Of a stretch of 53,174 bases of DNA, positions 16,301 to 41,069 are shown piece after piece. A model generated the notes under the pieces. It saw nothing but the letters and a program-made list of their open reading frames with translations, did no database searches and was not told where the DNA came from. Each line of letters begins with the position of its first letter. The stretch's first letter is position 1. Both the position numbers and the translations under genes were made by a program. This stretch comes from a virus. Taxonomy: Duplodnaviria; Heunggongvirae; Uroviricota; Caudoviricetes. The stretch covers positions 64,001-117,174 of IMG/VR virus record IMGVR_UViG_3300034022_000267; one strand, 5' to 3'.

Positions 16301-19300
16301 TTTTAATTTTAGATAATCATCCATATTAAATGTCACACCTAAGTTCTTCAAGAAACCAATCATCTCTTCAACATCTTTAGGAAGCTTCTCAGGCCATAAC
16401 TCTGAGTCTGTGTTAACTTGATATGTTTTAGTTTCACTATTAAATCTAACAAGCCCATTACGAGTTTTAGCTAGTGCTCTCATTTGACTAAACCAATCTT
16501 GTTCTACTTGTTTAGTTATTGTAAATTGATTAGCAGGAGCAGTGTACACTTCATTTCCTATAACATATTGAATAAGAGCATTTGGTTTTTGTTTTGTAAA
16601 TGTTTGATAGAAGTTAATGAACAATCTCCAGTCTTCTGGTGTTTTGAATTTACCAAAATCTATATTTTTTGAAAGATTACCACTTGCATCAATAGAATAA
16701 GATCCACCAATACGTTGAAAAAATCTAACGTATGTAGCATCGTAGCTAGCTAGATCAACTAACTTATCAATCACTTTATCAATACTTGTTGTATTAGATA
16801 TTTTATCCAATAACGTAGCAAACACTCTACTGAAATTTACTAACTTAAATCCTCCAACAGAAGACTTTTGTCTTACAGGTAATTTTAAACTAGTAGAATT
16901 TTGTTGATTAGTAGGAACTACTTCTGGTAATGTAGCAGCAACAAGTTTAATAGCAAATGGAGAAGTCTTTTTATGATCAACTGTAAATGTTTCTTGAGAA
17001 TAACCAACACTAGTTATATTCTCATCATTAATGTCTTTAAGATCTTCTTCATTGAAATCAACACCTATTGTGCGTAACAATTGTTTACCTTGTGTAAACA
17101 AAGCATTAAAACGTTCTTCTCCTAATTGTTGATATACATTACCAGCAATGTATGCTTGTTTAATATAATTATATATTTCAGCTCCTGTAATTTGTTGTAA
17201 ATCAAATATAGATTCTTTATTCTCACCAAATATATAATTTGCTGCACGAGAGAATATATCCTCTGCATATTCAGCAGCTTGTGTTTCTGTTATACCAGGA
17301 ATTCTACTGTAAGCAGGTGGTCCTTTCTTTTGTGATTCAGAAATAGTAAATTCTTTATACTTACCAGCATCAATAGCTTTAAACAAATCTTTAGCTAATG
17401 AAGGATTAGCATTTCTAGACATGATAAAGTTTATAATTCTTCTAAAGAAGTTACGTACTAATTCACTCAATGATCTAGCAGGAAGTTTACCCACTTTGAA
17501 TTCACCAAAGTCATCAGCTATTCGTTCTTCTATTTGTTTATCTGTAGCACTAGCATAATCTATTTTCTTACCAGAAGCTCTATCTGTAAACTGTCCAGGT
17601 TTGTTTCTAAACTCTTCTTCAAGAGCAACTCTTTCATCAGCTGTTAAGAAATGCTGATATACAGGGTGAAACAACTCATGATAACCAACTGTTCTTGGTC
17701 CAGCTTTGTAGAACTTAGCTACACCATCAACAAATACACCAAAAGCTTTTTCACCATCATATGTATCTACAAGATCTTCTAGCACTTCTAACGGTACACC
17801 AGGAAGGTTTTCAGCTTGGAAGTCTTTTAATATCTGAATATCATTCTCAGACATTACATCTTCTTCAGCTGTAACTCCCACTCTCATATAGTTATCATCA
17901 GGTAGGTCAGTGTCTTTTATATCAATAGGATCTATTTTGTCTTCAGGAAGAATCTGTGGATCAACTTCTTCTACAGCTGTAGGAGTTTGTTGTTTAGTTT
18001 CTTCTTCTTTAGTATAATTTTTTAATATTGTAAATATATTACCTTTTAATCTATACCAATCTGGATTACCTTTAAACTTGTAAGATTTTGTTTTTTCTGA
18101 AATAACTTCTATTTCTCCTTCTTTAATATTATTAGTTCTCCAAGGTTCTTCTCTTTGATTATATACTTCTAATATATATTGAACTTTATCTCCTTTTTTA
18201 AAACCATAAGGTCTAGAGTTATCTTCTTTTATTTCTTCTACAACTGTAGGAATTTCTTCTTCAACAACTGGAGCTTCTTCAGCTTGTTGTGTGCTTTGTA
18301 TTTCTTTTAATGCAGCAATAAGTTTATCACCAACAAATGTTACAACACGTTGTTCATCACTAGCTTCTTCATCATATTTACCAATAGCTTGTAACACACC
18401 ATCCACTGTAGCTAATATATCTTTATTATTTGCAGCTGATGTTATTGTGTCATTCACTTTAATATCTACAGATTCTACATTACCATCAGCATCTACAGTT
18501 CCTGTAAACTCAACTGGACCATTTGCAAATTGATATACATTAGGTGTAGTTCCATTCATTACATATTCTCCTATCATACCAGGGGTTGCTGGTGTAACAG
18601 GAGCAGCTTTAGCAGCCTGTGCAACAGGAGCAGGTTTTATAATAGGAAGATCAAAATCAACTAGTGTAGCATACTTCTGAGAGAATGAATAAGGAACAGT
18701 TGCTGTAGGAGCAGCCACTATAGTTGTAAGTGGTGTATTTTCACTAGAACGAGATGTTTTACCATCAGGAAGTTTAGATGATAACAAATAAGATTGGTAG
18801 TTTTTCCAATATCTAGCTACAAGTTGACCTTCTTCATTTTTAACACCTGTATATTCATAGAACTTACTCGTAAGATCTTTGATAGTTTTACTGTTGATAT
18901 TATGATGTGTACCTGTAAGTTGTTTTACAATCTCTGCTTCTTTGTTTTCAATATCTATAATAGGATATTTTACACCGCCTAAATAAATACTTCTTGAGTT
19001 AGTATCAATATAGAATTGATTACCTGATGTGTCTGCACCCTTACGTAAATATAATACATTTTGTAAGTATGATAAATAGTTTACATCTATATCTAATGGT
19101 TTACCAGATGTAGATTTTTCTCTTATGTCAAGAGCCAATGCTTTAATAACTTGATATATTGCATTAGCTTTATCTTTACCTAATACACTATTGTTTAAGA
19201 TTTCTAATACATCTTCATATTGAAGAATAACTATACCTTTTTCTTTAAATGTAATGTTTCTTCCTTTATGAGATACAAATCCTGCAGTGTTTATTTGAAG

Positions 19301-22300
19301 AAGTTTTGGTTGAGAAGATATTTTATTCTCAGGAATTAATATACCACCAATTTGATTTCTTTCGTAAAGACCATTAATTTTAGGATTAATGATAGCTATA
19401 CCTCTAGATACATCAATAGCATAAACTTTATGTTCTGCTGTAGTGTTTGCAAATAATCCAGCTCTTACTTGTCTCCAACCATTAGCTGCAGATGCAAGAT
19501 TTTCTTTTTCACCTTGTCTATATCTAGGAACTCTTTTTCCAGTTTTAGGATCTGTATATGTATAATACAATTCTGTTGTAGGCATAGCTTGGAAAATAGC
19601 TTGATTTACATCAATTGGTTTTCCAACTTCTCCTAAACGTTCACCTTCTTTATTTACAAAATATGATTTACCACTCTCATGTTCTACAAATACTTGTGCA
19701 ACAAATCCTGTATCAACATCATTTATTTTATCATCTGCAGTGGTTGGTCTACCAAACTGAAGTTCTGTAAGTCCTTTTAGTCCCAACACTTCTTCATTGT
19801 TAGGTGTAACTAACATTGCACCTATTCTCTTAGCATTCTTAAAGTTTTTAAGATTGTTTAAGAACTCTCTAGAGTTTTTAACATGCTGAGGTGCATTAGC
19901 ACGACTTTGAACATTTTCAGATTCACTAGTACCAGAGATGAAAAAGTTTCTCCATGTCTTTAAATAACTTTCATCATCTTTTACAATAGCTTCTGATGTT
20001 GTAGTTTCTGTAGGAATGGGTGTAGCAATCTCTCCAGAATTAAGCTCTGCTTTATTCTGTTGTCTATCCACTTCATTCTTAGTTACAAGCATTGCTTGCT
20101 CTTCTTTTTCTAAAGCAAGATTCTTTTCTTTTACAGCTTTATATGTTTCGTCTATGTTGTTTGTTATAATAGCAATAGTTTCATTCAACAAGTTTTCATT
20201 AGTTGTACCAAACAATCTTCTAAAGAATGTTTTTAATGAATTGACAAATGCTTCCCATGTAGAAGTTTGTGTATTCTTATATGGAATAGTTTGTAAGTAT
20301 CTTTGGAAGTCTCTATTAGATAAAGCTTCTGTTGCAAACTCATATATGTTTTTAAATGCGTAGAATTCACCATTCTTAATCAATCCTGCTTCAGCATATT
20401 TGTCAGGATCATTCTTAAATGTTTCTTGTACAAATTTAAATAATGGATCCAACTCTTTGAAGAATTGCCCATTAGTATCTGATAATCCATATACAGTTAA
20501 ATCATGTCCTATTTCATGTAACAATACATGTTCTGCAACAAGATTTCCACTATTGTCATAATCTGAAGCAAGATCTTCATAATTAATTCTACTTACTGCA
20601 GAATCTTTTCCTAGGTTTCCTCCTCCAGATATTCCAGCAGTAGACAATGTTCTATCACCTAATATAATTTTACTATCTCTACTAGTAAAGTTCAAGAAGG
20701 CAGTAGCTAATTGTTTTTCAAGAGTGGTGGCATAAGGTGACTCAGCAATCTTTTGTAACACTTCATATTTACTCTTCTCTCCTTCACCATATTGACTTAC
20801 AAGATCAGAATAAGATCTTTTATCTGATTTGAATTTGTTTCTACTCTTAGAGAAATATTGTGAATTGTTTGTATCAGGAGCAGTAGTTCTTGTCTTCTTT
20901 CCTTCTGGTGTAACTTCTGCTTTCTCTCCAGCAGTTGTATAGTTTTGTGGATTATCTTTTAAATCATTATATTCATTTACAAACTGTTGTCTTCTTCTTG
21001 AAATATCAACTACATCTTTTAATTCTTGTTTAACAAGATCTGTATCAATACGTTTTGATTTTTGTTGATCTATGTTGTATAACACTTTAGCAAGACTCAC
21101 TGATGTATCATTAGATAACTCATCATCTACAACATCCTGTACAGGAATATTTGCTCTTAAAAGTCTTGCAGATAGTTGAGGAATACGAATATCGTAATCA
21201 GCTATCTTACTAGCTGCATATACCATCTTATCAATAATCAATGGAGAATACTTTCTCATTTGATTACCTGCTTCATTAACTAATGGTTCACCATCTTCAT
21301 CTGTTACAACAGCACCACTATATCTAAGGTTTAAAGATTTATATAATTCATCTGTATTTTTTGCTGTAGCTTCAAAAGCATTTAATTTTTTTTGAAATGA
21401 TTCTACAGTATCATTAATGTTAGCAATACCTTCTTCTTTTAATTCGCTAAGTCCTTCATTAGACGATGAAGTTTGTCTAAGTTCTTTGACATCATCCATG
21501 ATCATATCAAATCTACCATACTTAATACGTGGGGCAAGATATGTATGTGTTAAATCAGCATTAAGATCTCTTGCTTCTAATTCATTTCCATCAATAGTAG
21601 CATCTTGTTGCTCTTCTTGCAACTTAACAAATCTATTTACATTTTCACTTCTTTCTTTAAACGCATCTCTAAATGTAGGAGCATTATCAAGTTCTTTAAT
21701 AAATTTCTCAGTATTAGACAATCTAGCTTTTCTTTGTGCAATTTCTCCATTAGGACCAAATGTTTGCATCACTCCTCCAGTAATACCACCAAGGATACCA
21801 CCTTCAATACCTTCTTTAGAAACTAATGCACCAACTCCTTCTCCAGATTCATCTTCACCAATCATTCCATAAAGAAAACCATCAGTCCAAACACTTGCTT
21901 CTTTACCATCACGTCCTTTATTAAAATAGTTTTGTGTACCCACTTGTAAAGCATACTGACCAATCTCTTGCCCAGCCTCTTTAGGATCAAATGCATACTT
22001 AGCTATTCTACTACCTTTTTCATATAGTTTACCAAGTTTAGTTGTGGCACCAGCTTTTGCTGCATACCCACCTTCTCTTAATACTACATCATCTGCACTA
22101 CCTAATATACTGTTTGCAGCTTGTCTTTCAGCAGAATAAGAACTTCCTAATAGTTTTGGAAGTTGTACATATTCTGTAACTCCTAATAATGCTAAATTTC
22201 CTAAGAAAGAAGTTTTACCTATTTTTTCTGAAATAGTATTTATATTTGATAGTTCAGCACCTGTAGGTTCTTCACCAAAATGGTCTTCTTTATATCGTTG

Positions 22301-23260
22301 TATTAAATTATTTCTATATTCATTTGATGTTTGTAATGCTTCAAATGCAGCTTCTCCTGATGAAGAATATGTAGCAATTGCTATTCTTCTTGCTTTTTGA
22401 CCAAAGCCTGACATAGCATTAGTTGATTTAGCTATATTTAAAATAGCAGATTCTCTAGCTGTAAGATCAGCAATAGATGTAATACTCTTTTCAAGAATTG
22501 CAGCTGCCTCAATATTTTTACCTACAGAAAAAGCTCTTGCTGTATTTCTTAATAATGGTGTAAATAATTTAAATGCTTGAGATGCTTCTGCAGCAATTGA
22601 TCCTGCAAGAGCAGCTTCTCCAATTGTTGCACCTGCTACTTTTAATGCAGCATTTGCTATATTACCAGAAAGCATTGCTCCTACAGCAAATCCAGAATTC
22701 TTAACTAATTTATCAAATAGAAAATTAGTTGTTATCCAGTTATCTGTAGAATACCATGATGCATTTTTTTCTTTATCAGTATAATAATTTGGTAGATAGT
22801 TTTGATCCACCTCATTATTATATTCATCTAATTTTTGCATTATAGGATTATCCCATATATCTGCAAATCTTCCAGAGAACGGAGCTCTAGCTGCACCATA
22901 TAACATACCAAATCCACCAGCTATTGTTGTAGCAGCAAGATTAGTTCCTTTTAATATACCATTAGCAGCTTTTGAAAATCCTGATTGTGCATTAGCATAT
23001 TGATCTTCTATATCAATTATGTCACGAGAGAATACATCATATCTTCTATTTGCATATAGTTCTCCTGATGTAACAGTAGGTAACAATCCTTTACCTGTAA
23101 TTGGACCTTTTCCAAATATTGGATCACCTTCATTTCTTCCAGATAAATCTGTAGTCAATGGTCCATAGTTATTTGGAGCAGGAGTTGATGGATTAGGTAG
23201 ATTAGGAAGTTGCTGATCTGGGTTTATAAGAATCGGATTAAGATTTTTAAAATCTGGCAT
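10391..23260 (-). CDS. Virion-packaged two-barrel RNA polymerase polyprotein (crAss-like), with two HExxH zincin-like domains
   Basis: 4289 aa. Catalytic loop GSDFDIDKL at 13586-13600, preceded by GFRIP and PSEI..QAG; upstream FHKILFGD..KR and NEADA motifs. HEIGH at 20504-20518 and HELFH at 17666-17680, each followed downstream by a Glu-containing helix (YEFATE, EERIAD). Confidence 0.92.
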   Translation of the reverse strand: MPDFKNLNPILINPDQQLPNLPNPSTPAPNNYGPLTTDLSGRNEGDPIFGKGPITGKGLLPTVTSGELYANRRYDVFSRDIIDIEDQYANAQSGFSKAANGILKGTNLAATTIAGGFGMLYGAARAPFSGRFADIWDNPIMQKLDEYNNEVDQNYLPNYYTDKEKNASWYSTDNWITTNFLFDKLVKNSGFAVGAMLSGNIANAALKVAGATIGEAALAGSIAAEASQAFKLFTPLLRNTARAFSVGKNIEAAAILEKSITSIADLTARESAILNIAKSTNAMSGFGQKARRIAIATYSSSGEAAFEALQTSNEYRNNLIQRYKEDHFGEEPTGAELSNINTISEKIGKTSFLGNLALLGVTEYVQLPKLLGSSYSAERQAANSILGSADDVVLREGGYAAKAGATTKLGKLYEKGSRIAKYAFDPKEAGQEIGQYALQVGTQNYFNKGRDGKEASVWTDGFLYGMIGEDESGEGVGALVSKEGIEGGILGGITGGVMQTFGPNGEIAQRKARLSNTEKFIKELDNAPTFRDAFKERSENVNRFVKLQEEQQDATIDGNELEARDLNADLTHTYLAPRIKYGRFDMIMDDVKELRQTSSSNEGLSELKEEGIANINDTVESFQKKLNAFEATAKNTDELYKSLNLRYSGAVVTDEDGEPLVNEAGNQMRKYSPLIIDKMVYAASKIADYDIRIPQLSARLLRANIPVQDVVDDELSNDTSVSLAKVLYNIDQQKSKRIDTDLVKQELKDVVDISRRRQQFVNEYNDLKDNPQNYTTAGEKAEVTPEGKKTRTTAPDTNNSQYFSKSRNKFKSDKRSYSDLVSQYGEGEKSKYEVLQKIAESPYATTLEKQLATAFLNFTSRDSKIILGDRTLSTAGISGGGNLGKDSAVSRINYEDLASDYDNSGNLVAEHVLLHEIGHDLTVYGLSDTNGQFFKELDPLFKFVQETFKNDPDKYAEAGLIKNGEFYAFKNIYEFATEALSNRDFQRYLQTIPYKNTQTSTWEAFVNSLKTFFRRLFGTTNENLLNETIAIITNNIDETYKAVKEKNLALEKEEQAMLVTKNEVDRQQNKAELNSGEIATPIPTETTTSEAIVKDDESYLKTWRNFFISGTSESENVQSRANAPQHVKNSREFLNNLKNFKNAKRIGAMLVTPNNEEVLGLKGLTELQFGRPTTADDKINDVDTGFVAQVFVEHESGKSYFVNKEGERLGEVGKPIDVNQAIFQAMPTTELYYTYTDPKTGKRVPRYRQGEKENLASAANGWRQVRAGLFANTTAEHKVYAIDVSRGIAIINPKINGLYERNQIGGILIPENKISSQPKLLQINTAGFVSHKGRNITFKEKGIVILQYEDVLEILNNSVLGKDKANAIYQVIKALALDIREKSTSGKPLDIDVNYLSYLQNVLYLRKGADTSGNQFYIDTNSRSIYLGGVKYPIIDIENKEAEIVKQLTGTHHNINSKTIKDLTSKFYEYTGVKNEEGQLVARYWKNYQSYLLSSKLPDGKTSRSSENTPLTTIVAAPTATVPYSFSQKYATLVDFDLPIIKPAPVAQAAKAAPVTPATPGMIGEYVMNGTTPNVYQFANGPVEFTGTVDADGNVESVDIKVNDTITSAANNKDILATVDGVLQAIGKYDEEASDEQRVVTFVGDKLIAALKEIQSTQQAEEAPVVEEEIPTVVEEIKEDNSRPYGFKKGDKVQYILEVYNQREEPWRTNNIKEGEIEVISEKTKSYKFKGNPDWYRLKGNIFTILKNYTKEEETKQQTPTAVEEVDPQILPEDKIDPIDIKDTDLPDDNYMRVGVTAEEDVMSENDIQILKDFQAENLPGVPLEVLEDLVDTYDGEKAFGVFVDGVAKFYKAGPRTVGYHELFHPVYQHFLTADERVALEEEFRNKPGQFTDRASGKKIDYASATDKQIEERIADDFGEFKVGKLPARSLSELVRNFFRRIINFIMSRNANPSLAKDLFKAIDAGKYKEFTISESQKKGPPAYSRIPGITETQAAEYAEDIFSRAANYIFGENKESIFDLQQITGAEIYNYIKQAYIAGNVYQQLGEERFNALFTQGKQLLRTIGVDFNEEDLKDINDENITSVGYSQETFTVDHKKTSPFAIKLVAATLPEVVPTNQQNSTSLKLPVRQKSSVGGFKLVNFSRVFATLLDKISNTTSIDKVIDKLVDLASYDATYVRFFQRIGGSYSIDASGNLSKNIDFGKFKTPEDWRLFINFYQTFTKQKPNALIQYVIGNEVYTAPANQFTITKQVEQDWFSQMRALAKTRNGLVRFNSETKTYQVNTDSELWPEKLPKDVEEMIGFLKNLGVTFNMDDYLKLKSNQRQEFGDTVGEIYAYLPQAKDIGTLDGKTLKINKQIAKLAELQVKVTNPNQENTLMGVEGSKKQAYSDNNAPSFFENSFNDSETLEELKISRPELNDVFSKNAITFKEGGLFFNEEGNRFKMIKVSYIDGKKSIDTNKGTSTSKLTKGQRFTQEINQNINGDYYILIPADGATEWMMNLGNHISYEGVVGGRAWDEIYDIFKGYLIDDIALARDWRSRSSLKNIGSKAKELRFFKEILEVYAPEQLKDLNEMIEDEATSDDEFKDYIAKNSKAINDAVAKSIQDIAKGTKDILLKQGEVVSAIKTKNDSENMYKYIGLDSNFAMKSGINKLKMTETQLDNVITFVNANNFINNIEFHKILFGDPYQFKIKDGVLDETKRVKSFLSPRRTTFDSPEFNAFLNSQNKVGEIELTPDDFGYHENKEYASTVTLKDVELDTIRYEGVNEADAFSYISDVAYREVKNKNGQWPATAEAWHQYEMAFTRKSLSDKGEYKYSNKTLKAADEKALSEPQPEHVIDITKPIVSGSQYGENEVKLVLDKTSQMPLYYSAVAGTTLEKLYIKMFKERIDYVIFESGRKLGIEKTHSLYNQNGTFNDTEFATDTKVLVPWTINGIQLETSYEGGGEQTRGSQPTKIVTLDMFDNGEETIEGAKEAFDVYNQALKDLDDNAYTELLSNFGVEDLGMGEFELLDPKIISKTLERELFRRQLSNNAKDTILLDANGKFRIPFESSPAYKQIKDVVYSMINKSLVSPKMNGGGYVQAPVTGWENAKEGRGMAIKEKDGYRKLSREEYDALTEAQKNKVVLTSDRLHFPTKEDPYMEVLIPNWFKKSLKGKFANDADLIRELNKPENQGILKGIGFRIPAQAMSSMAAIRVAGFLPDFMGKTVIVPSEITSQAGSDFDIDKLNMYLKSIYIDENGRLYAVDYKGSEKDTKDFYGNVYDNTIKKSIDKITSSDEFRKDLLDVLNAFEQTNVVVSKEQRLFYKSNEDVINEIVSQADDLEMLPSEYMTSQIESLSEKTEKLNSKLFNEEMRNKYVKIMYKKALENRYFDAFEKLITLEGNYENLITPIGDAGLKDISKELDDMRKDDETTIKNRMVNRNYLTNLRHAFLTGKKWVGIVAVNITGHALAQRMKLVMDIDAVADKLTFDERVILGDRKVKLPHNEIDGKVSLSGTTTAVPNAKGLLEKISYRLSGYATAVVDIAKDPFIMKIIKSEPAIGTFMFLERIGAGQNTIWFMNQPIISEYLDLLENKGTTFLYNPANINEVRAKFGLLKSGARGTEKESFDVDSLKKNIETYADNKNKMSTKQENEAQGAILKEFLKYSKMAEHSFKFTQATNYDTTKFKNSDTFHKKTTRTDVARNKNIFSSVDKLLESSSIGNQKRLIDFAMKSVGSFIKLEQEQFVDITNEVLRSFEEQEFIKDDDFSKIASKAKASFLDFIVQTKSGLNSEILALTTGDNSIAEQLAKAKLKYPNMRLLQDLVPEASKKVDGAQTIKLKVNLKEAYDENLYVEMMRELRELDPELYNNIVKVAILQGTYQSPVSINNIVPIEDYAKKIKPIIDTLVDDVNIEYFTKGMFQKNNWKDETIVPTTTPRFYFERDANFEPVEEYLGEDPYGNDVYRYKVSPFLEVFDGSTMQEKRLVLTLSPKYDARNGANSDFVKVPKVIVNKIGQNINIVTGQTISPQAMRAIRLGGDTSLTDYYGYQKVKYSNGNPVTTAEGDYVYKLVNLLGDGNLVSEYYLDGRQSVLNNGTVKIQDEIPDSVIIDYFGGEVTEDIVSLPTEEIVDEEVEYTEEEQLQFEINDLTQRIAELEYIQKDLDVTNTETIVLNNLPKITPISATKETGAKVGTKLDISPSLLSGNGKTVDQAANDIWDDNFRDTGIDTQDVRNIIIDILSSGSKANYTAQIGTSIELSKLKEELRDLKDQLPKEKSKIKTPKPIPGQLDLFTEEDNSWKEEDNDDSCVPF

Positions 23261-25969: not shown

Positions 25970-25987
25970 TTATAATTAAATTAGTTA
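25970..25987. promoter_or_regulatory. Conserved 18-bp upstream motif TTATAA-N3-AATTAGTTA (copy 2)
   Basis: The same pattern occurs at 1691-1708 and 43009-43026. Each copy is upstream of a TAnnTTTG-like promoter. Confidence 0.55.
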
Positions 25988-28900
25988 TATATTTTTATAA
26001 GATTTTACAATAGAGCCATTTCTTGCAACATCTTCTTTCTTTTTCTTTTTAAGAACCGTTTCATATTCATATCCTTCAGGAGCAGATTCTCTACTAGAAG
26101 TTCCTCTTCCTTCCATGTTAAATTGAGCAAGTGGATTCATGTTAACAGCTCTACCATCTTTATCAAATCTATAGTTGTACATGTTTTCATATATTCCTAA
26201 TTCTCTATTCTCAAGTTTGTTCTTAGCATATTTATCAGATATAGAACTAAGAGCAGCTTGTGTTGTAGCTTTAGTGTTAGAAAGAGCTTGTGCTTGTCTT
26301 CCATATTGTTGATCATAGATAGCAAGGTTTTTAAGTTTAGCATCATTTAGAATGTTTCTATTCTCTCCATACACTTTATCTTTCATTGCTTGGTTAGCTC
26401 TAAACTGTTCACCTAGCACTCCTTGATTAGCTTGATACTTTTGTGCATTTAGATTAGCTTGAGCTGCTGGATTATAACCTACCATTCTTTGAGCTGCTCT
26501 ATAGTCAGATTGATTTGCGTTCAATTGATCTTGGAATGATATATCATAAGGTGATCCAAGATCAGGTTGATACCCTTGAGCAGGTACAGGTTCTAATTGA
26601 TTAGAAGATAGTGCATACATTTCTCCAGATAATTGATTAGGATCTAATCCTTCTTGATCTGTAGGTCTAAAATAAGGAAGTGCTGCATTTAATATATTCA
26701 TCCAGTTATTTCTATTAGAAGCTGTTCCTTCTTCTGTATCTTCAGTTTCTTTTATAGCATCAGCAGGTGTTGTATCTTTAGGAATTTCTGCTGCTTTTGG
26801 TAATAGTAATTCATTAGCAGCCCAACCAAAACCTATTTTTTCATCAAGCATTGGATCTTGATTATACAACATTTTATGTCTAGCTTTAATTAATGGAGCA
26901 CTTTCAGGATTGTTTAAAAGAAACTCTTGAAACTCTTTATTTCCTTTTCCTTTAAATCCTAATTTATCAGCTACATCATCCCATTGTTTTGCAGAGAAAG
27001 ATGATGCTGTGGCTTTACCATATTTGTTTCCTGCAGAAGTGTTTCCTTGCCAAGGAGTGATACCATATTTACTTACATACTCTTCTGTTTTAGGAAGTTC
27101 TTTAAGAGGAGGATTTACTGTCGAAACATTAGCTACAGGAGAAGTGACTGCAGGGGAAGTTGCTGCATTTCTTCTACTAGTTCTTGGTGCAACAGTGGTA
27201 GTTTGTTGCACTGTTCTAACAGGAGCTATTGGTTTATATTCTGGTTCTGGTTGAGAAGTTACTACAGCTCTTTCATTCTCTTCTGCTATTTGACCAATAT
27301 TTTTTTGAGGAGTTTGTTTTAAAGCTTTTGCTGCATCATATTTTTGTTGTGATGTAGGTTCCCATTTAGTTATTTTATCAGTAGTATTATCATAATTACC
27401 TTTTCTAATTAAACGTCCTTTTGCATCAAGTTCAGCAACTCTTCCATTTGAATAATAACTTTTTTTGGTATTGTTACCAAAAGTTTTTGTATAGTGATTA
27501 TCATTATCATCATATTTATAATCAATGATATCATTAGCATCAGCTTTTTTAGAAGTTAATATTTTACCTTTATCATCTCTGTCTACAATAACATTTCCTT
27601 CATATACATATCTTACTACACCATTAGATAATTTAAATTGATTTTTGATATTTTTTCCTTTCCATAATTCATCACCATCTTGTGCTTTAGGAAAACTACC
27701 TCCATATTTAGCATATTGTTTAATAGCTTCTTTATCTATCTTCACTTTACCTCTTGCAAGATCATCTGCAACTAACCCATTTTCTTCTGCTGTATCATTG
27801 ATAGCATTTTGAAGAGAAGCTGCGTTTATCTTTTTATCAGCTATAGATTTAAGTTTCATATTAGCTCCTTGTATACTAGCTTGTAAAGCAGATAGTTTTA
27901 ATTTATCAAAAGAGTTTTTAGGATCTAATGCATTTAATTCATTAGTTGATTTCTCTACTAGTTTATTTTGTTTAGATTCTATCTTAGATAAATCATTTAC
28001 GTAGTTTTTAAACTTCTTACCCTTAGCATTTTTATCTCCTAGCATATCTATATATTGATTAGGTATTTTTAAATTACCAAACACCACTCCTGATTTTTGT
28101 ACTTCTCCTGTTTGAGGATCTATAACACCACCTTCTTCTAATTCAACCATAGGTTCTCCTCTTTCTACTTCTACTGGATTACCACCATAAGTTACACCTA
28201 TTCCTGTTTCTCCATTAGGAGAATACTCTTCATGACTCTTACCTCTAAACATAACTGTTTCTCCTGTACCAGGTAAATAAGGATTGTGTGAAATAGTTTC
28301 AGCTCCTCCACCCCAATGTGTTTGTAATTCTCCACCTAATCCATATGACTTAACTCCTCCACCATCTCTGTATGTTTCCATAGCTCTTTCACTAGGAGGT
28401 GTATAAGATTTTAAATGTCCACCAGCTCTATATTTATGAGCATAATCAGCAAAGTCTTCAGCAGTGTGATCACCAAACATTGTTATCACTTGTGGGTTAT
28501 ATTCTGGGTTCATATATCCACCTTCTTCATAAGAAGGAATATCTCCACCATTTTTTACATAAGAACTATATTGAGCCTGTAAACCTTGTCCAGTAGCATT
28601 TCCAACTATTGTCCCAATGTTTCTATTGATAGCATTTTGATCTCTTTTAATAGCCTTCTGTGATGTGTTAAGCATTCCTCCTGCAATATTACCAATTGCT
28701 CCACCAATCATTCCTCCTACAGGGCCACCAAATGCTGTTCCTGCAGCTGTACCAATTCCTTTACCAATCTGACTCTCTGCACTATTGTTTGAAAACATAT
28801 TACCAATACTTGTTATTCCTTGTGCACCTCCTTGTTCACCCATAAAACTAGAAAAGTCCATACCATCTTGTGCATTGCGTATATATCCACCATGATAATA

Positions 28901-29797
28901 TTGTTTTACATTACTATCGTCTAATGGTTCATATCCTCCATCATCATATATATTATTAGGAGCATATGTATTTTGTATCTCTGTTGGGTTACCAGATATT
29001 TGTCTACCATATTCTGCTCTTTGTATAGATCCTCCATTACGTGTAATAACATTTGTACCTACACCGTATGTAGGAAACATTTGATTTGCTTGTACAAGAT
29101 TATCCCAAGGAGTGTTATATCTTCTTTCTTGTTCTTCTTCTCTAGTGCCAGAAGCCAACGCTTGTATATCAGTAACCTTACGTGCTTGACGTGCTTTATT
29201 TTTTTCTTCTTTCTGTTTTGATAATCCTTGAATTCCTCCAATTATATCTGTAGCAGCTCCCATGTAACTACCAATTCCTCCAGCAGCACCATCTGCTTCA
29301 GGCGGTGTATAACCAACGTCATTAGGAAGAGCTTGAGGAATACCTCTCATACCTGATGTAGTTTGATTAGCTTTATTTATAAACTGTTGCCCATAATTAG
29401 GCATAGCAAAAGAATCTGTAGGTTGGAAAGCATTTTGTGCAAATTGCTGAGCATTAGGAGTATACAACGATGAAAAAGATTGTGCAGAAAAATTTTGAGT
29501 TGGGCCCATTTGTTGTAAAGATGCTGGTTGACTTTGATATGATCTAGTATCAGCATAATTAGCAGTTTGTCCAAATCTAGAATCTCCCATAGGGTTTTCT
29601 AAATAATCAGGAATACCATTTTGATTACTATCAGGTAATAAACTTGTTCCTAATTGAGCTTTATTTATTTCCATACCAGTTTGAGCTTTCTTAAAAGCTT
29701 TACCATGTACTTTCATAAATGCTTCCTCTGATGGATATTTTTTGTAGAATTCTTTTTCAGATTTAACTCCTGCTATTTTTAAAATTTCTGCTTTCAT
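25985..29797 (-). CDS. Large cargo/ejection protein with Gly-rich hydrophobic segments and repeated xxxGG motifs
   Basis: 1270 aa. Contains the crAss-like cargo signature FRGKSHE..G.GV..G..VEVERGE..VVFGN, a Gly-rich TM-like segment (IGKGIGTAAGTAFGGPVGGMIGGAIGNIAGGML), and many AQxG/YxxGG motifs. Confidence 0.7.
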   Translation of the reverse strand: MKAEILKIAGVKSEKEFYKKYPSEEAFMKVHGKAFKKAQTGMEINKAQLGTSLLPDSNQNGIPDYLENPMGDSRFGQTANYADTRSYQSQPASLQQMGPTQNFSAQSFSSLYTPNAQQFAQNAFQPTDSFAMPNYGQQFINKANQTTSGMRGIPQALPNDVGYTPPEADGAAGGIGSYMGAATDIIGGIQGLSKQKEEKNKARQARKVTDIQALASGTREEEQERRYNTPWDNLVQANQMFPTYGVGTNVITRNGGSIQRAEYGRQISGNPTEIQNTYAPNNIYDDGGYEPLDDSNVKQYYHGGYIRNAQDGMDFSSFMGEQGGAQGITSIGNMFSNNSAESQIGKGIGTAAGTAFGGPVGGMIGGAIGNIAGGMLNTSQKAIKRDQNAINRNIGTIVGNATGQGLQAQYSSYVKNGGDIPSYEEGGYMNPEYNPQVITMFGDHTAEDFADYAHKYRAGGHLKSYTPPSERAMETYRDGGGVKSYGLGGELQTHWGGGAETISHNPYLPGTGETVMFRGKSHEEYSPNGETGIGVTYGGNPVEVERGEPMVELEEGGVIDPQTGEVQKSGVVFGNLKIPNQYIDMLGDKNAKGKKFKNYVNDLSKIESKQNKLVEKSTNELNALDPKNSFDKLKLSALQASIQGANMKLKSIADKKINAASLQNAINDTAEENGLVADDLARGKVKIDKEAIKQYAKYGGSFPKAQDGDELWKGKNIKNQFKLSNGVVRYVYEGNVIVDRDDKGKILTSKKADANDIIDYKYDDNDNHYTKTFGNNTKKSYYSNGRVAELDAKGRLIRKGNYDNTTDKITKWEPTSQQKYDAAKALKQTPQKNIGQIAEENERAVVTSQPEPEYKPIAPVRTVQQTTTVAPRTSRRNAATSPAVTSPVANVSTVNPPLKELPKTEEYVSKYGITPWQGNTSAGNKYGKATASSFSAKQWDDVADKLGFKGKGNKEFQEFLLNNPESAPLIKARHKMLYNQDPMLDEKIGFGWAANELLLPKAAEIPKDTTPADAIKETEDTEEGTASNRNNWMNILNAALPYFRPTDQEGLDPNQLSGEMYALSSNQLEPVPAQGYQPDLGSPYDISFQDQLNANQSDYRAAQRMVGYNPAAQANLNAQKYQANQGVLGEQFRANQAMKDKVYGENRNILNDAKLKNLAIYDQQYGRQAQALSNTKATTQAALSSISDKYAKNKLENRELGIYENMYNYRFDKDGRAVNMNPLAQFNMEGRGTSSRESAPEGYEYETVLKKKKKEDVARNGSIVKSYKNI

Positions 29798-29798
29798 A

Positions 29799-31559
29799 TT
29801 AATTATATTTGTTTAACCATCCACCGATAGTTGGTTTATTGTAATTGGTAAAGTTAATTAAATTATCTAAATTTTGTAAACCTTTTTGTTCTTGTCTTCT
29901 TCCATTCTTAGCCATTGGATATTCTGTAACTTTCTTTCCTTTAAACTTATAGTTTTTTCCTGGCTTCATTAGTTTTGTATCTCCTGTATCTGATACTCCT
30001 AGTAATGGTTCATATACTCCTTCCATTGTAATATCATTAGATCCTATTTCTACTGGTTTTCCCCAGTTATCAGGATTCCAATATCCATTATTATCTTTAA
30101 TTACGGAACCATCTTTACTAATAGTCTTAGGTTGAAAATCTAATCCATTCTGATAGTATTGCATCTCTTGACCATTCTGTGCACTAGCCATTGTTTTCTT
30201 TGCATACTTCCCATTACTAGGAGCAGCTCCTTGTGTACGTGCGTATGAGAAACCTACAGCTCCTGGAATAGAACCACCCATTGCATATTCTTGTAATCCT
30301 TTATATATAGTACTCATTGGAGCAACTTCTTTATAATGTTCTGCAAAGTATTCTGCTTCTTCAGGAGAATTAAATCTAATTGCTTCTCTACTTCTAGAAT
30401 CAGGATCTATTAATGTTAATTCTTCTTCACCAAAATCTTGTAATAATGGTACAGCATAATTATCTACAGATGACATATAATGTGTTCCTTGCCCTTCAGG
30501 AGTCATTCCTGTTTTAGGCATAGCTTGTGACATTCTTTTTATAGCAGGGTTACCAAAAACATTACCCATTCCTATTTTAGATTTCATCATTCCACGCATT
30601 GCATCTTCTGATGTACCATCCTGTGCCTGAGGAACATAATTAACTGGATAGACAGAACCACCCATTTGATATTGAGGTGTAATCTTTCTTGTATTACCAG
30701 GACCTAAATCATCAGGACTTGTTATATTACTTAAATCAGAAATTCTATAATTAGTTTGACTTCCTCCAAAGGGTTGGTTTATGTTTTCTTGTATATCATA
30801 ATATTTAGCACGTCTAACATCTGGGTGTAATCCTGATATATCAGCATTTATATCTAAATCACAATGTACTAATCCTTCTGGTTGTAGATTGTTTTGTATT
30901 GCTTTTATTTTAGTTCTTTTTACAGGAACATCTTTTGTTTCATCTATAGGTGAATCAGAATCTTTTACTATTACTTGTTGTTGTGGTTTTTTATAAAAAA
31001 AATTAGGACTTTTAAAATCTTCATAATAAACTTTTTCTTTTGAGTATGTATCTGGAGAAAAAAAATGAGATTCTTTATATCTAGGACCTTCACCTAAATA
31101 ATCCTCATATTTATAAGGTTTTATATTAGGATTTAAAGATTCTTTAATACGACGGTCTTCTTCATTTTTTTCATCAGGAGATAGTTGTGAATAAGATTTT
31201 GTTTTCACTATCTTTTTAATTAACTTAGGGTCAATTTTTTCTTTTGACTTTTCCCATCTTCCAGAAATAGGACGATTATGTAAAAGTTTTGATATATCTT
31301 TAGTTCCTTCATATAAAGAAAGACTATCATTATAAGCTCTATATCTAGGGTCATTTGTTGATTCTACATATACAGGTTTCTTTGTTCCATTCTGAGCATT
31401 AGGAATTTCTCCTCCTTCTTGAAACTGTCCTCCCCATGCAGGAGACTCCCATTGGGGACCATTGAAAGTTCCTTCACCAACAAACCCTGGGGGTAAACTT
31501 ACTTTAGAATCATTAAAATTATCCAACCATCCAGTGGTTTGTTGAGTTTTATTTTTCAT
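29799..31559 (-). CDS. Modular cargo/internal virion protein with repeated AQxG/YxxGG motifs
   Basis: 586 aa with FQEGG, AQNG, YQMGG, AQDG, YAMGG, AQNG and AKNG motifs separating distinct sequence blocks. Confidence 0.6.
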   Translation of the reverse strand: MKNKTQQTTGWLDNFNDSKVSLPPGFVGEGTFNGPQWESPAWGGQFQEGGEIPNAQNGTKKPVYVESTNDPRYRAYNDSLSLYEGTKDISKLLHNRPISGRWEKSKEKIDPKLIKKIVKTKSYSQLSPDEKNEEDRRIKESLNPNIKPYKYEDYLGEGPRYKESHFFSPDTYSKEKVYYEDFKSPNFFYKKPQQQVIVKDSDSPIDETKDVPVKRTKIKAIQNNLQPEGLVHCDLDINADISGLHPDVRRAKYYDIQENINQPFGGSQTNYRISDLSNITSPDDLGPGNTRKITPQYQMGGSVYPVNYVPQAQDGTSEDAMRGMMKSKIGMGNVFGNPAIKRMSQAMPKTGMTPEGQGTHYMSSVDNYAVPLLQDFGEEELTLIDPDSRSREAIRFNSPEEAEYFAEHYKEVAPMSTIYKGLQEYAMGGSIPGAVGFSYARTQGAAPSNGKYAKKTMASAQNGQEMQYYQNGLDFQPKTISKDGSVIKDNNGYWNPDNWGKPVEIGSNDITMEGVYEPLLGVSDTGDTKLMKPGKNYKFKGKKVTEYPMAKNGRRQEQKGLQNLDNLINFTNYNKPTIGGWLNKYN

Positions 31560-32073
31560 TTATATTATTTCTTCTATTGTTACAATTTTCTTTTTTAGTA
31601 ACCCATCTACAATTCTGTGGTTCATAATTACCATTATTGTCTATTCTATCTATTTCTAATTGTTTAGAGTAAGTAGAGTACATATCTTCAATAAATAGAT
31701 TTATATCTTTCCATCTTTCACATACTTTTATTCCTCTACCACCATAATATTTATTATTTAAATTATTACATCTATATAACATGGAATACCAAACATGATA
31801 TAGAGGATGTTTCTTATGTCCATGTGTTATATTATTTAAACACATATTCTTCATTTTTTCTTTTTGCAAACATCCACAAGAAGATTTATTAATCTTAACT
31901 TTATCTATTATTGCTTCAAACTGATTTCCACAAGAACATATAAATAAAGCTTTTCTTCTTATACGAGTTCTTTTACTTTCTTCTGTTTTTAAAATAATCT
32001 TAGGAGAAACTTCTTTCATAAAAGTGCAGTTACCTATCTTATCTCCATTACTATAATTTACTTTAGTTTTCAT
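31549..32073 (-). CDS. Free-standing HNH-family homing endonuclease
   Basis: CxCG..SCGC Zn motifs, then HPLYHVWYSMLYRC, YGGRGIKVCERW and IDRIDNNGNYEPQNCRW. The gene is visibly more AT-rich than its neighbours. Confidence 0.85.
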   Translation of the reverse strand: MKTKVNYSNGDKIGNCTFMKEVSPKIILKTEESKRTRIRRKALFICSCGNQFEAIIDKVKINKSSCGCLQKEKMKNMCLNNITHGHKKHPLYHVWYSMLYRCNNLNNKYYGGRGIKVCERWKDINLFIEDMYSTYSKQLEIDRIDNNGNYEPQNCRWVTKKENCNNRRNNINEK

Positions 32074-38889: not shown

Positions 38890-39858
38890 TTAATTATTAC
38901 GTCTTCTACCAGCTCTATTAGTTCTGTTTGGAAGTTCGTACATATTAAATCTATTTAGATCATTTTTAATTCTTCTCTGCTTAGCATATGCATCTTGTTT
39001 CTTAATTTCTATAGATGCCATGATAAATGATTCTTCATAAGCTTGCTTATGATAAATTAACTTTTGCTGTAACTGATTAAATGTTTCATCATTAGTTTGA
39101 TTAGTAAGCATTTCAAACACTTTAAACTTAATGAATGCTTCTACATACTCTCTTATACGATAGTTATCTGGAATCATTTGATTACCGATAGTATCATACT
39201 CTGTAGCATAAAATATTAATTGAACTGTTCCATTTCTAAAATTAGTAACAAACTTGTTATCTCTAATGTCAAATGAATCTAATCCTGAAGAACCAGGAGT
39301 AAAGTTTTGTCTTGGTACATTTTGACCATATGTTTCTAAATCACTTGAATAATTTAAACTACAATTCTGTCTTGCAGAAATGTTTCCTGGTTTAAGTAAA
39401 TAAGATTGTTTATAAGAACGTGTTTGTTGTGTATTTGTTTTATATACAGCTTGTATTAGTTCAGGCATACACTCAGGACATCCTGTTGTACATTCTAAAT
39501 TTGTACAAGCCACTCCTCCATAAGTTACTGGAGCTACTTGTATAGTAGTTGAACTAGCTGCTTGTGAATAAAATGAATTAGCTGATTGATATGGTAGCTG
39601 AGGAATTTCTGTACACATCCAAGCTTCTCTAACAGCATAAAAATTATCAGGAAGTCTAGCTTGAAAGTCTTCAATAAACAAAACTGTTTCACTAATAACA
39701 TATGTTGTTCTTCCTAACTTCTGAAGAGCTTTGTCTAAATATGTTGGAAATAATAAATCATCCACTGCTCCTGTATCAAAATAGCTCTTAAGCTCTTCTT
39801 TAACTGTAGAATAAACTGGTTCAGGGGATATAAAATTGTATTTATAATAGTAGCTCAT
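38890..39858 (-). CDS. Tail ring (tubular, P22 gp4-like) protein
   Basis: 322 aa just upstream of the muzzle gene. Ends with ring-like motifs (LIFYATEYD..MIPDN..EYVEAFIKFK). Confidence 0.6.
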   Translation of the reverse strand: MSYYYKYNFISPEPVYSTVKEELKSYFDTGAVDDLLFPTYLDKALQKLGRTTYVISETVLFIEDFQARLPDNFYAVREAWMCTEIPQLPYQSANSFYSQAASSTTIQVAPVTYGGVACTNLECTTGCPECMPELIQAVYKTNTQQTRSYKQSYLLKPGNISARQNCSLNYSSDLETYGQNVPRQNFTPGSSGLDSFDIRDNKFVTNFRNGTVQLIFYATEYDTIGNQMIPDNYRIREYVEAFIKFKVFEMLTNQTNDETFNQLQQKLIYHKQAYEESFIMASIEIKKQDAYAKQRRIKNDLNRFNMYELPNRTNRAGRRRNN

Positions 39859-39861: not shown

Positions 39862-40344
39862 TTATGATTTCCATTGATTGTAAATGTGTTGATACTTATC
39901 ATTGGTTTTTAAGTAGTGTGACAATAGTCTTGATGTAAGTCTAGAAGGTTTGAAATACCAAAGATCAGAGTTTTTAAATCTTGCTGATTGTTTAAACCAC
40001 ATCCATCCAAAAAAGAAACCTTCTGTATGATAGTTGAAATTGTATATCACCTTTCCTTTTTCTTTGGTCTTTTGCCAATCTATAGGAAGATTAACAAACT
40101 CTTTACCATCAATATTATTCTTTAGTTTTCTTCTTTTCTTTTTATTAATTGAAAATTCTCCAAATCCAAAAGGAAGTCTTGCTTTTTCTCCAGTCTCTAA
40201 AATATATTCTTTAAATGCTTCATTGTAGGTGTATAATATATTCCTCCATTCATCGTAAGTAAGTGTAATAGCTGGATGTTTTTTACAGAAATTATTATAA
40301 CTGTCTTTACTAGAAGATCTCCAATCAATTTTTGTTCTTGACAT
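39862..40344 (-). CDS. IHF/HU-like DNA-binding protein (crAss-like)
   Basis: Helix-helix followed by ILETGEKARLPFGFGEFSI, matching the HU/IHF G..V.L.GFG.F motif. It sits between two ring genes, as in crAss-like phages. Confidence 0.7.
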   Translation of the reverse strand: MSRTKIDWRSSSKDSYNNFCKKHPAITLTYDEWRNILYTYNEAFKEYILETGEKARLPFGFGEFSINKKKRRKLKNNIDGKEFVNLPIDWQKTKEKGKVIYNFNYHTEGFFFGWMWFKQSARFKNSDLWYFKPSRLTSRLLSHYLKTNDKYQHIYNQWKS

Positions 40345-41069
40345 TAATTAGTTGGTTTTGAGTTTGGAGCTTGTCCATCTATTCCTTCTTGACTAATGTC
40401 TGTTTTAATTTGGAAATATGTAGATAATAATTTTCTTGATGTTAATTCTAACACTTGTTGTTCTAAGTATCCAGGAAGAGGAAATTCTTTGTCTAAAGGA
40501 TTTTTACATATATCTTCAAGTGCATATTCACCTCCACATCCACATTCAGGATACATGATATTATTGTCTACATCTTCTTCAAAGAAAGCTACAAATCTAA
40601 TTGCTTGTAGCAAAGGGTTAGTAACATATAGATATCCGTTAGATATCCAAAAATAAGTTTCATTTTTAATTACAGGAAGTTTAAGTAAGTTTATATATCT
40701 ATTTACAGATATTTCTTTTAACTTCTTTCCTTTACCACTCATTGCATTAATGGAATAAACTCCTTGAATAACATATTGGTAATTACCTTCTGATATACGT
40801 GGAAGTTTAAACTTAGTTCTTGCAATACTACATTCATCAACATAATTACAACATTCAGAAATAGGAACTTCACACATCTCAAGACATGGTATAGTAGTGA
40901 ACAATGTATCAGTTGCCCAAAGCTTTCTAAGATTGGTTTCACGTTTAATAAGCAATAAAGAATTATTTCTTATTTCGCTAGCTATTGCTCTATCTGTTAT
41001 TAATGAATCTGTAGAAAGTATCTTGTGAACACTTCTAACATCTGATACTAATTTTCTTAATGTTGCCAT
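40344..41069 (-). CDS. Tail ring (tubular) protein
   Basis: 241 aa. N-terminal helices (MATLRKLVSDVRS..ITDRAIASEI), YFWISNGYLYV, and C-terminal EFPLPGYLEQQVLELT, in the expected position. Confidence 0.6.
   Translation of the reverse strand: MATLRKLVSDVRSVHKILSTDSLITDRAIASEIRNNSLLLIKRETNLRKLWATDTLFTTIPCLEMCEVPISECCNYVDECSIARTKFKLPRISEGNYQYVIQGVYSINAMSGKGKKLKEISVNRYINLLKLPVIKNETYFWISNGYLYVTNPLLQAIRFVAFFEEDVDNNIMYPECGCGGEYALEDICKNPLDKEFPLPGYLEQQVLELTSRKLLSTYFQIKTDISQEGIDGQAPNSKPTN

Follow-up and report, generated by a model that had tools for sequence, protein, structure and literature searches.

The window, the whole 53,174-nucleotide stretch of viral DNA analysed, carries on one strand, in this order, genes for ring proteins (Ring 1, PF24228, 2.3e-9, at 38890-39858; Ring 2, PF25702, 2.9e-17, at 40344-41069), a 1962-aa muzzle-sized gene, P0001, P0002, and the genes for proteins of 865 and 4289 aa. 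P0002 (1270 aa, 25985..29797) and P0001 (586 aa, 29799..31559) lie on the minus strand, as do all the features mapped on them below. According to its translation, a conservation profile over 120 relatives and an AF2 model, P0002 is made of a conserved N-terminal stretch of 40 residues, Gly-zipper hydrophobic stretches at ~170-192 and ~345-376, a beta-plus-helix core at ~491-675, a variable insert at ~709-1030 and a conserved, Q/N-rich C-terminal part. P0001 is a modular cargo-like protein with 1048 relatives. Translation, a BLASTP map against 119 relatives and an AF2 model delineate conserved parts at the N-terminus (module 10-58) and at the C-terminus (425-586, with a small beta domain at ~485-552), and variable blocks between them at 60-295 and 318-424.

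P0002 is likely the counterpart of the cargo protein C1 (gp45) of Bacteroides phage crAss001. It follows the muzzle and ring genes and precedes the virion RNA polymerase genes, as expected for C1, and in crAss001 the gp45 gene is likewise flanked by the muzzle gene and those of the virion RNA polymerase. In both proteins the N-terminal half is Gly-rich and includes a hydrophobic Gly-zipper segment, the beta-plus-helix core has a SHEE segment, and the C-terminal part is rich in Q/N. They show no pairwise BLAST similarity, and P0002, which has a variable insert, is longer by 50%. When the P0002 model was compared with 48,161 chains by VIA-align, gp45 (7qog_M) ranked first, residues 265-440 of the model matching the fold of the portal-bound domain (chain residues 426-551) over 114/126 residues with rmsd 2.9 A, 20% identity and Z 8.1, a score barely above that of unrelated helical rows (7.9), which counts only together with the PF25725 and hhalign matches. 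PF25725 (crAss_CARG1) has one match in the genome, in the same region, at P0002 ~511-549, with 11.3 bits (below the cut-off of 27) and E 0.023, and gave none in hmmscan at E 0.01; hhalign of alignment A1 against gp45 returned a probability of 45%, with E 2.2e-4, over 39 columns. Both P0001 and P0002 are probably cargo packed into the particle and injected by a crAss-like phage. Unlike crAss001, this genome encodes a second modular protein that bears the motif (P0001), its gene being placed between those of the muzzle and of the C1 counterpart.

The motif found in both proteins is built on a nine-residue unit, GG-x-hydrophobic-x-x-aromatic-x-x, in which a Gly-Gly hinge is followed by a hydrophobic residue and, three positions on, by an aromatic or small residue. 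Up to three units occur in tandem, and two of them make up a 13-residue form, [YFAV]-x-x-G-G-x-[ILVF]-x-x-[AY]-[QEG]-x-G, present six times in the 1270 residues of P0002 (0.06 expected) and once in the 586 residues of P0001. The seven pairs of motifs nine residues apart listed in the preliminary description are all there, at P0001 46 and at P0002 38, 252, 300, 414, 476 and 696. The same description reported more than 20 [AYF]xxG(G)-like elements; the count of [AYF]xxG agrees with this (21 and 11 copies), but 21.4 and 7.0 are expected, and this loosest form is not enriched. Stricter forms do rise above the shuffled background. The paired form [AYFTV]xxG[GM]xxxx[AY]xxG is found 6 times in P0002 against 0.06 expected (none of 2000 shuffles reaching 6) and once in P0001, where 0.01 is expected. 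Of the single unit [AYFTV]xxG[GM], P0002 has 15 copies against 4.1 (0/3000 shuffles), and GG with a further G nine residues later occurs 11 times against 1.2. A position matrix built exclusively from 50%-identity representatives of unrelated proteins from elsewhere gave 9 matches of at least 10 bits in the whole genome (117 kb, 140 ORFs, 36,383 aa), where shuffles gave 0.15. P0002 accounts for six of these matches, P0001 for two, and a 197-aa basic late protein encoded outside the window (G000 57944-58537), which has three motif copies, for the last. The 865-, 4289-, 1629- and 1962-aa proteins gave no match even at 5 bits, in keeping with the earlier remark that the motif does not cluster in the first three of them, and the major capsid protein (MCP) and the portal are free of it.

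Residues G4, G5 and G13 are invariant and position 10 is either Ala or Tyr; in 231 instances K, E, R or Q occurs two residues before the Gly-Gly, and a hydrophobic or aromatic residue three before. Two flavours, GGWLDxY and GGxIPxAQxG, are far apart in hydrophobicity. The RTX nonapeptide of beta-rolls (GGxGxDxUx) is a different unit, with Gly at position 4, Asp at position 6 and long arrays. Several positions hold 2.4-3.2 bits across proteins which have nothing else in common, and the motif-bearing set includes proteins unrelated by BLAST and a podophage with a SU10-type capsid. The motif is retained at corresponding sites in relatives numbering in the hundreds. Codons vary freely from copy to copy and DNA homology is poor; since copies differ in codons, what is selected is the protein sequence rather than a DNA repeat. 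No paper naming the motif was found.

In P0002 the first copy, AQTGMEINKAQLG (38-50; 29648..29686; 17.8 bits), lies where the conserved N-terminus gives way to a variable block. TRNGGSIQRAEYG (252-264; 29006..29044; 14.9 bits) and YYHGGYIRNAQDG (300-312; 28862..28900; 15.8 bits) lie in stretches with pLDDT <50. VKNGGDIPSYEEGG (414-427; 28517..28558) scores 27.6 bits, and at the same site the relative P0121 hosts a DUF3597 and YkuD insert between a half copy and a full copy. Three tandem units, YRDGGGVKS-YGLGGELQT-HWGGGAETI (476-502; 28292..28372; identity 0.76-0.83), directly precede the C1-like core domain, and AKYGGSFPKAQDG (696-708; 27674..27712; 27.5 bits) separates the conserved core from the variable insert. 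The conserved C-terminal tail RNGSIVKSYKNI (1259-1270; 25988..26023) is motif-like; relatives end in [KR]N[GS]S[IV]V[KR][SA][YI]KN[IL].

The strongest copy of the genome, AWGGQFQEGGEIPNAQNG (31.0 bits), resides in P0001 (41-58; 31386..31439), where it closes a module of ~50 aa that in relatives is also found at internal positions. A stretched copy, YQMGGSVYPVNYVPQAQDG (297-315; 30615..30671), forms a short separate match of its own in many relatives. The half copy YAMGGSIPGAVGF (425-437; 30249..30287) opens the conserved C-terminal part, and SAQNGQEMQYYQNG (459-472; 30144..30185; 17.9 bits) marks a site directly after which relatives carry inserts of ~400 aa. P0001 ends in the conserved tail IGGWLNKYN (578-586; 29802..29828), whose residues G165, G166, W167 and L168 in alignment A3 are nearly invariant, and GGWL[NDS]KY[NEQ] is the C-terminus of ~100 of the 119 relatives. 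A motif-like element, GWLDNF, is found at the N-terminus as well (10-15; 31515..31532), and some relatives start with MAKGWLDNY. In both families the motif makes up the last 7-12 residues, which are conserved, and in some relatives, P0335 and P0246 among them, it sits three residues from the N-terminus (residue 3-4).

That the motifs bracket otherwise unrelated blocks, as originally proposed, is borne out by the alignments. In P0001, 51% of 753 internal alignment ends fall in motif windows covering 20% of the protein (544 BLASTP alignments against 247 relatives), and in P0002 the conserved-to-variable borders at ~40 and ~700 coincide with motif copies in the profile of 120 relatives. Modules are exchanged between copies among relatives, and the idea of swappable effector modules found support in that some are enzymes (SLT, Amidase_2, YkuD, PG_binding_1, SET, His_Phos_1), many of the modules acting on the cell wall. 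Near-identical copies part unrelated modules in P0257, P0354, P0339 and P0330, and modules with a copy on each side occur in P0121 and P0257. Portals from more than 120 clusters share 88-94% identity, while the cargo genes are mosaics, which shows that these change fast in a virion that is strongly conserved in other respects.

In the AF2 models of both proteins every copy falls where pLDDT is <50, in predicted disordered linkers adjoining folded domains. This context, together with the accumulation of insertion points and alignment ends on the copies, could be accounted for by a hinge, or unfolding-friendly linker, devoid of a specific partner, tolerated between domains of a chain that has to travel through the portal and tail channel. 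Copies would mark module borders since recombination within a shared linker yields viable in-frame chimeras, and conservation would be due to shared ancestry and gene conversion. Copies within one protein are indeed more alike than copies of different proteins (0.40 versus 0.30 identity; 0/1000 permutations, in a test that ignores family), as expected from gene conversion or recent duplication. The free variation of codons, leaving poor DNA homology, speaks against this explanation, as does the information content of several positions in otherwise unrelated proteins, the SU10-type-capsid podophage included, and a mere linker is not expected to provide the conserved terminal residues of two families. 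We regard it as decidedly unlikely.

The copies could also be cleavage sites, at which a virion-associated protease, of phage or host origin, would cut cargo polyproteins at or beside the Gly-Gly during maturation or after ejection, freeing modules as separate proteins, as for adenovirus core proteins, ASFV pp220/pp62 and MARTX toxins. Invariant Gly-Gly residues are typical of protease sites (adenain, ASFV pS273R), and the invariance of G4, G5 and G13 speaks for this hypothesis. The near-identical copies that part unrelated modules and the P0121 insert with copies on both flanks fit it as well, and the three-copy 197-aa basic protein recalls adenovirus pVII and pMu. The 4289-aa protein has two HExxH motifs, HEIGH and HELFH, and a zincin-like domain has been predicted in crassvirus virions, for which polyprotein cleavage was speculated (bioRxiv 10.1101/2020.03.07.982082). 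However, searches of the late genes with Pfam and PHROGs identified no prohead, clan-CE, C39 or other protease, the only peptidase match being a sub-threshold Peptidase_A4 (E 0.0016) in a 399-aa protein. The motif is missing from the MCP, the portal and the HExxH-bearing 4289-aa polymerase polyprotein, although the latter is expected to undergo cleavage according to the same published work; cuts at the last 7-12 residues, or at residue 3-4, would remove almost nothing; and the hydrophobic residue is at P5, rather than at P4 as in adenain sites. Moreover, gp45 has been described as one chain bridging tail and capsid across three looser units. Cleavage is a doubtful explanation, if the main rival to docking, and of the reusable tag initially envisaged the protease-site half, whether referred to the HExxH domains or to a prohead protease, is weakened, while the tag itself is real, being located at the module borders of two probable cargo proteins whose modules are swapped. 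The other half, a putative capsid- or portal-binding signal, fits better.

The motif resembles a docking handle more than it does a site of proteolytic cutting. We infer that it ties variable cargo to constant virion parts, both the binding and its target being part of the inference, and give this slightly less than an even chance. It would be a short linear peptide set in the disordered linkers and ends of the ejected cargo proteins, namely P0002, the second and highly modular cargo P0001, and probably the small basic late protein. At each copy the flexible chain would latch onto a constant part of the particle (portal wing, rings of the tail barrel or inner capsid), and variable modules would in this way be recruited into the procapsid, kept in sequence and threaded out when the phage infects. 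Because the handle alone would have to stay constant, the joints would allow whole modules to be added or replaced. A terminal position, at the C-termini of both families and near the N-terminus in relatives, suits a docking peptide, and a constant portal facing mosaic cargo genes fits a constant adapter on variable cargo; the higher similarity of copies within a protein suggests tuning to one partner in each phage.

Of C1 only short docked pieces have been resolved, a ring-bound helix (214-245) and a portal-bound domain (425-552), in a chain treated as single and spanning tail and capsid (Bayfield et al. 2023, PMC10172136; PDB 7QOG chain M). Both resolved segments, two in all, open with a looser Gly-Gly unit, AYGGPLEF (207-214) just before the helix and AFGGWLNTQGG (425-435) at the start of the domain. 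This looser unit (aromatic, 0-2 residues, GG-x-hydrophobic) has 15 overlapping matches in gp45 against 1.46 expected (0/2000 shuffles) and is absent from crAss001 gp44, gp46 and gp47; the full 13-residue tandem form is lacking in gp45 (no match at 6 bits). Enrichment of the looser unit, the match of P0002 to the portal-bound C1 domain, the disordered context of the copies, the motif-free 4289-aa polyprotein and the late genes without a protease count in favor of docking. On the other side, AF2 docks none of the copies onto domains of the same chain in either model, a single polypeptide has no obvious need for many handles, Ala or Tyr at position 10 is odd for a single pocket, and the crAss001 argument rests on two segments and the looser form only. 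The invariant Gly-Gly, the polyprotein-like arrangement of copy-flanked modules in P0121 and P0257, and the predicted zincin-like domain with the two HExxH motifs of the neighbouring protein also weigh against docking.

The motif might instead act after ejection, its copies pairing with each other or binding a host envelope or cytoplasmic factor. In the self-pairing version, kinked Gly-aromatic segments would undergo beta assembly, aiding a trans-envelope channel or a cargo condensate. The nine-residue period, with Gly-Gly, alternating hydrophobic positions and up to three units in tandem, the many modules that target the cell wall and the Gly-zipper membrane-like segments of the proteins are compatible with such a role. 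Yet, AF2 predicts no structure for the copies, the units do not match the RTX consensus, the two flavours differ greatly in hydrophobicity, and none of the results points to a host partner, which makes a role after ejection very improbable.

The question addressed here is by what means crassviruses choose, store and eject a protein cargo of several megadaltons, and a conserved motif found at module borders and at both termini is a concrete, mutable handle on it. Taking docking further, the Gly-Gly peptide might be a portable loading-and-ejection tag of tailed phages, such that any tagged module is loaded and delivered, and environmental crass-like phages would use it to shuffle injected enzymes (cell-wall hydrolases, L,D-transpeptidase, SET methyltransferases, phosphatases). 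We consider this broader role tentative and on the unlikely side. It would make the peptide a tailed-phage counterpart of encapsulin cargo-loading peptides, one that could load foreign proteins into particles; were the tag sufficient for loading, chosen proteins could be packed into phage particles. Should the copies instead prove to be cleaved, a protease still to be discovered would be implied.

Known systems resemble the one described here to different extents. Substrates of clan CE proteases (adenovirus protease, ASFV pS273R) and MARTX autoprocessing toxins are alike in being polyprotein-like virion or delivered proteins, in which Gly-Gly or linker sites separate functional modules swapped among strains. 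Here, in contrast, no protease domain was found in the late genes and extreme-terminal copies are conserved. The clan CE consensus (M/I/L)-x-G-G|x does not describe the motif, the 231 instances having the hydrophobic residue at P5 and not at P4, and no cognate cysteine protease was found in the late-strand genes with Pfam and PHROGs. Like the T4 capsid targeting sequence and giant-phage prohead-protease sites (PMC10052503), the motif would be a short peptide setting the encapsidation of internal or ejected proteins, but those signals are N-terminal and removed by the prohead protease at x-x-E sites. The copies described in this work occupy internal and C-terminal positions, and the late genes yielded no prohead protease family. 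Encapsulin cargo-loading peptides and carboxysome CsoS2 repeats are short hydrophobic stretches flanked by Gly; they reside in disordered tails or linkers, are often C-terminal or repeated, and recruit varied cargo into a protein shell, that of encapsulins having the HK97 fold. They have no sequence relation to the motif, whose cargo leaves through the tail and whose binding to a shell is hypothetical; the likeness is in short peptides lodged in disordered tails and linkers, often C-terminal or repeated.

The Gly-Gly peptide of P0002 (1270 aa; window 25985-29797, minus strand) and of the modular cargo-like protein P0001 (586 aa; 29799-31559, minus strand) is real and, in P0002, strongly enriched. 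All seven nine-residue pairs quoted in the preliminary description were recovered by translation and pattern search, and the consensus of 231 distinct instances, [YFAV]-[KERQ]-[DN]-G-G-x-[ILVF]-x-x-[AY]-[QEG]-x-G, frequently with an additional G after it, consists of two nine-residue units, as had been proposed. P0001 has one copy of the paired 13-residue form and P0002 has six, where shuffling of P0002 predicts 0.06 (0/2000). In P0002 the single unit [AYFTV]xxG[GM] was found 15 times (4.1 expected), GG with a G nine residues on 11 times (1.2 expected), and three units lie in tandem at residues 476-502. The loosest form, [AYF]xxG, does exceed the 20 occurrences announced, but its count equals the chance expectation and marks no enrichment; it should be set aside. 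When the 140 ORFs (36,383 aa) of the whole genome were scanned with a position matrix whose training set consisted solely of representatives from elsewhere, nine matches reached 10 bits or more, compared with 0.15 for shuffled sequences. P0002 accounts for six of them and P0001 for two; the ninth lies in a basic protein of 197 aa encoded outside the window. The 865-, 4289- and 1629-aa proteins, from which clustered motifs had been reported missing, gave no match even at 5 bits, nor did the 1962-aa protein. Codons vary among copies, so conservation is at the protein level, and a DNA-level repeat was discarded on this ground; an EF-hand or RTX calcium site was discarded for a mismatch in register.

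The genome spans 117,174 bp with direct terminal repeats, and the window is its second half. Genes for the large terminase and for a portal of P22 type stand at the start of the record. A long late operon runs on the minus strand of the window. In addition to P0001 and P0002, the operon encodes the major capsid protein, crassvirus tail ring proteins 1 (38890-39858; PF24228, 2.3e-9) and 2 (40344-41069; PF25702, 2.9e-17), a muzzle-sized product of 1962 aa, and proteins of 865, 4289 (10391-23260) and 1629 aa, all on the minus strand. Pfam and PHROGs assigned no family to P0001, P0002 or the 865-, 4289- and 1962-aa proteins; the 4289-aa protein, which carries HEIGH at residue 915 and HELFH at residue 1861, had no Pfam family at E 0.1. 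An HNH endonuclease gene (31549-32073, minus strand; phrog_374, 1.3e-49) is flanked by a 288-aa gene and by P0001, with whose start it shares 11 bases. A CxC...CxxC zinc-ribbon-like segment opens most P0001 relatives and is missing from P0001 itself; insertion of the HNH gene may have displaced it.

At least 1995 relatives of P0002 and 1048 of P0001 were retrieved, and in over 100 relatives of each the copies occupy the same positions, with site-specific flavours (YEDGGxVKSYGLG, AKFGGKFTKAQDG, VRDGGDIPNYEDG). Copies are more alike within one protein (identity 0.40) than between proteins (0.30; 0/1000 permutations, family being ignored). In AF2 models built on deep alignments every copy has pLDDT below 50 and adjoins folded domains (residues ~491-675 in P0002, ~485-552 in P0001). 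The C-termini of both families resemble the motif, reading GGWL[NDS]KY[NEQ] in about 100 of 119 P0001 relatives and N[GS]S[IV]V[KR][SA][YI]KN[IL] in P0002 relatives, and some relatives start with the motif, e.g. MENGGWLDAY and MKNGGWLNSY.

The further claim that motifs bracket unrelated sequence blocks holds in both proteins. The conserved/variable borders of P0002 at ~40 and ~700 fall on copies, and 51% of 753 internal alignment ends of P0001 lie in motif windows covering 20% of the protein. Close relatives are set apart by entire blocks whose insertion points coincide exactly with copies; in the database protein P0121, the 414 site has received a DUF3597 and YkuD block with a half copy on one side and a full copy on the other. 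A reading of the copies as passive linkers between modules, or as the joints at which modules recombine, seems unlikely. A motif-only profile identified, at E <=0.001 and among 1.84 billion, 287 representative proteins, mostly with 3-8 matched stretches each. The majority are related to P0001 or P0002 and larger than they are. Among the 128 new proteins listed, about 30 show no other similarity by BLAST. In one of these, P0257, which has three full copies and motif-like ends, KKNGGWLDSYxDG separates unrelated modules. Other BLAST-detectable similarity is also missing in P0354 (L008:399-2240), in P0339 (L009:5992-9990), which has a SET domain and directly follows a 1996-aa muzzle-sized gene, and in P0330, encoded between terminase and P22-type portal in a podophage with SU10-type capsid. 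The P0354 translation equals the database sequence only when TGA is read as Trp; the motif thus occurs also in a phage apparently using a recoded stop codon. Recognised modules between copies are SLT, Amidase_2, PG_binding_1, YkuD, SET, His_Phos_1 and DUF6973. The SET methyltransferase, N-terminal module in 3 of 32 scanned motif-bearing cargo proteins (P0339 and two relatives), hints at an injected protein-modifying enzyme; that the motif itself plays its role after ejection is very doubtful.

The 197-aa protein, very basic, is encoded at the far end of the late operon (G000:C1:57944-58537 of the whole record, L001:1074-1667, minus strand). It has three motif copies, LRKGGKITKVPDG, LKSGGTIKKAQNG and KKNGGLIKRADGS, and the stretch GLWDNIRANKGSGKKP; its central region is similar to a motif-free hypothetical protein from Flavobacterium elemo phages. 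Possibly the 197-aa protein is packaged and binds DNA.

We favour, tentatively, the view that the motif is a putative docking handle, because its context is disordered, its terminal copies are conserved, the 4289-aa polymerase polyprotein lacks it, and in crAss001 short docked pieces start at Gly-Gly units of a chain treated as uncut. The population pattern argues in the same direction. Across more than 120 clusters at 90% identity (4139 matches), the full 861 residues of the portal (G000 1573-4158, L006:1573-4158, minus strand) show 88-94% identity, whereas the neighbouring cargo genes are mosaic, with 50-80% identity confined to parts of them; the latter thus stand out as a hypervariable island, the phage population being very uniform. 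Prediction of a complex of the portal with a 30-aa motif peptide gave ipSAE 0.00 in both runs, an outcome that speaks neither for docking nor against it. Cleavage at the copies, doubtful as it appears, is a serious rival, given that Gly-Gly is invariant, that modules are flanked by copies and that a zincin-like domain has been predicted in crassvirus virions (bioRxiv 10.1101/2020.03.07.982082). The motif-free polymerase polyprotein speaks against it, and so does the lack of a recognisable protease among late genes in Pfam and PHROGs, which is a further reason for preferring docking. A weak, sub-threshold Peptidase_A4 match in a 399-aa late protein (48407-49606, minus strand; E 0.0016, 18.3 vs 22.3 bits) is the only protease-like signal among these genes. 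An aspartic protease suggested by the SDTGD stretch in the C-terminal domain of P0001 was rejected, as the database proteins P0143 and P0170 have Asn instead of the Asp and Leptolyngbya phage Lbo-JY46 lacks the stretch. The motif may also be a T4-like signal, which first targets and then is cut.

Foldseek against the PDB gave no match below E 0.04 for either the P0001 or the P0002 model, a wide structure comparison of the P0001 beta domain reached at best Z 5.3, and neither phmmer with both proteins nor a profile of the P0002 family alignment retrieved anything useful from PDB sequences. Megablast and tblastn against 50,697 phage records found no match for P0002; P0001 and the major capsid protein matched only Lbo-JY46, which lacks the Gly-Gly motif. 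The capsid proteins are 26% identical, and the P0001 beta domain (485-552; window 29904-30107) corresponds to the N-terminus of a 496-aa Lbo-JY46 protein (L005:8980-10467), joined there to a C-terminal part that resembles a lytic transglycosylase (ESGGNYRAVN...GKYQF).

We regard P0002 as the counterpart of crAss001 cargo protein C1 (gp45) on three results taken together. PF25725 has a single sub-threshold match in the genome, at P0002 ~511-549 (11.3 bits, E 0.023); hhalign of the P0002 family with gp45 aligned the SHEE segment (E 2.2e-4, probability 45%); and the top hit of the P0002 model among 48,161 solved chains is gp45 as solved in the portal assembly of crAss001 (7qog_M; Z 8.1, rmsd 2.9 A, 114/126 residues). 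BLASTP of P0002 with phi14:2 g069 and g070 gave no significant match, and the 13-residue matrix found none in crAss001 gp44-50 or phi14:2 g065-g071. A looser unit, aromatic-(0-2 residues)-GG-x-hydrophobic, has 15 overlapping matches in gp45 against 1.46 expected (0/2000); it is not found in crAss001 gp44, gp46 and gp47, and is present in phi14:2 g070 too. Such a unit opens both virion-ordered gp45 segments: AYGGPLEF (207-214) leads into the ring-bound helix at 214-245, and AFGGWLNTQGG (425-435) begins the portal-bound domain 425-552.

None of the papers in the library searched contains the motif strings, and the crAss001 structure paper makes no mention of such a motif. Crassvirus cargo proteins as such were already known; new here are their modular, enzyme-bearing architecture and a widely conserved, previously undescribed linear motif. 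The gene order is the crassvirus layout, and in crAss001 the genes for C1 and C2 (gp46) have the muzzle gene on one side and those of the virion RNA polymerase on the other (PMC10172136). The ring genes adjoin a 160-aa gene and a 212-aa gene that contains NUMOD1, in likeness to crAss001, which has an endonuclease gene and an IHF-like gene among its own.
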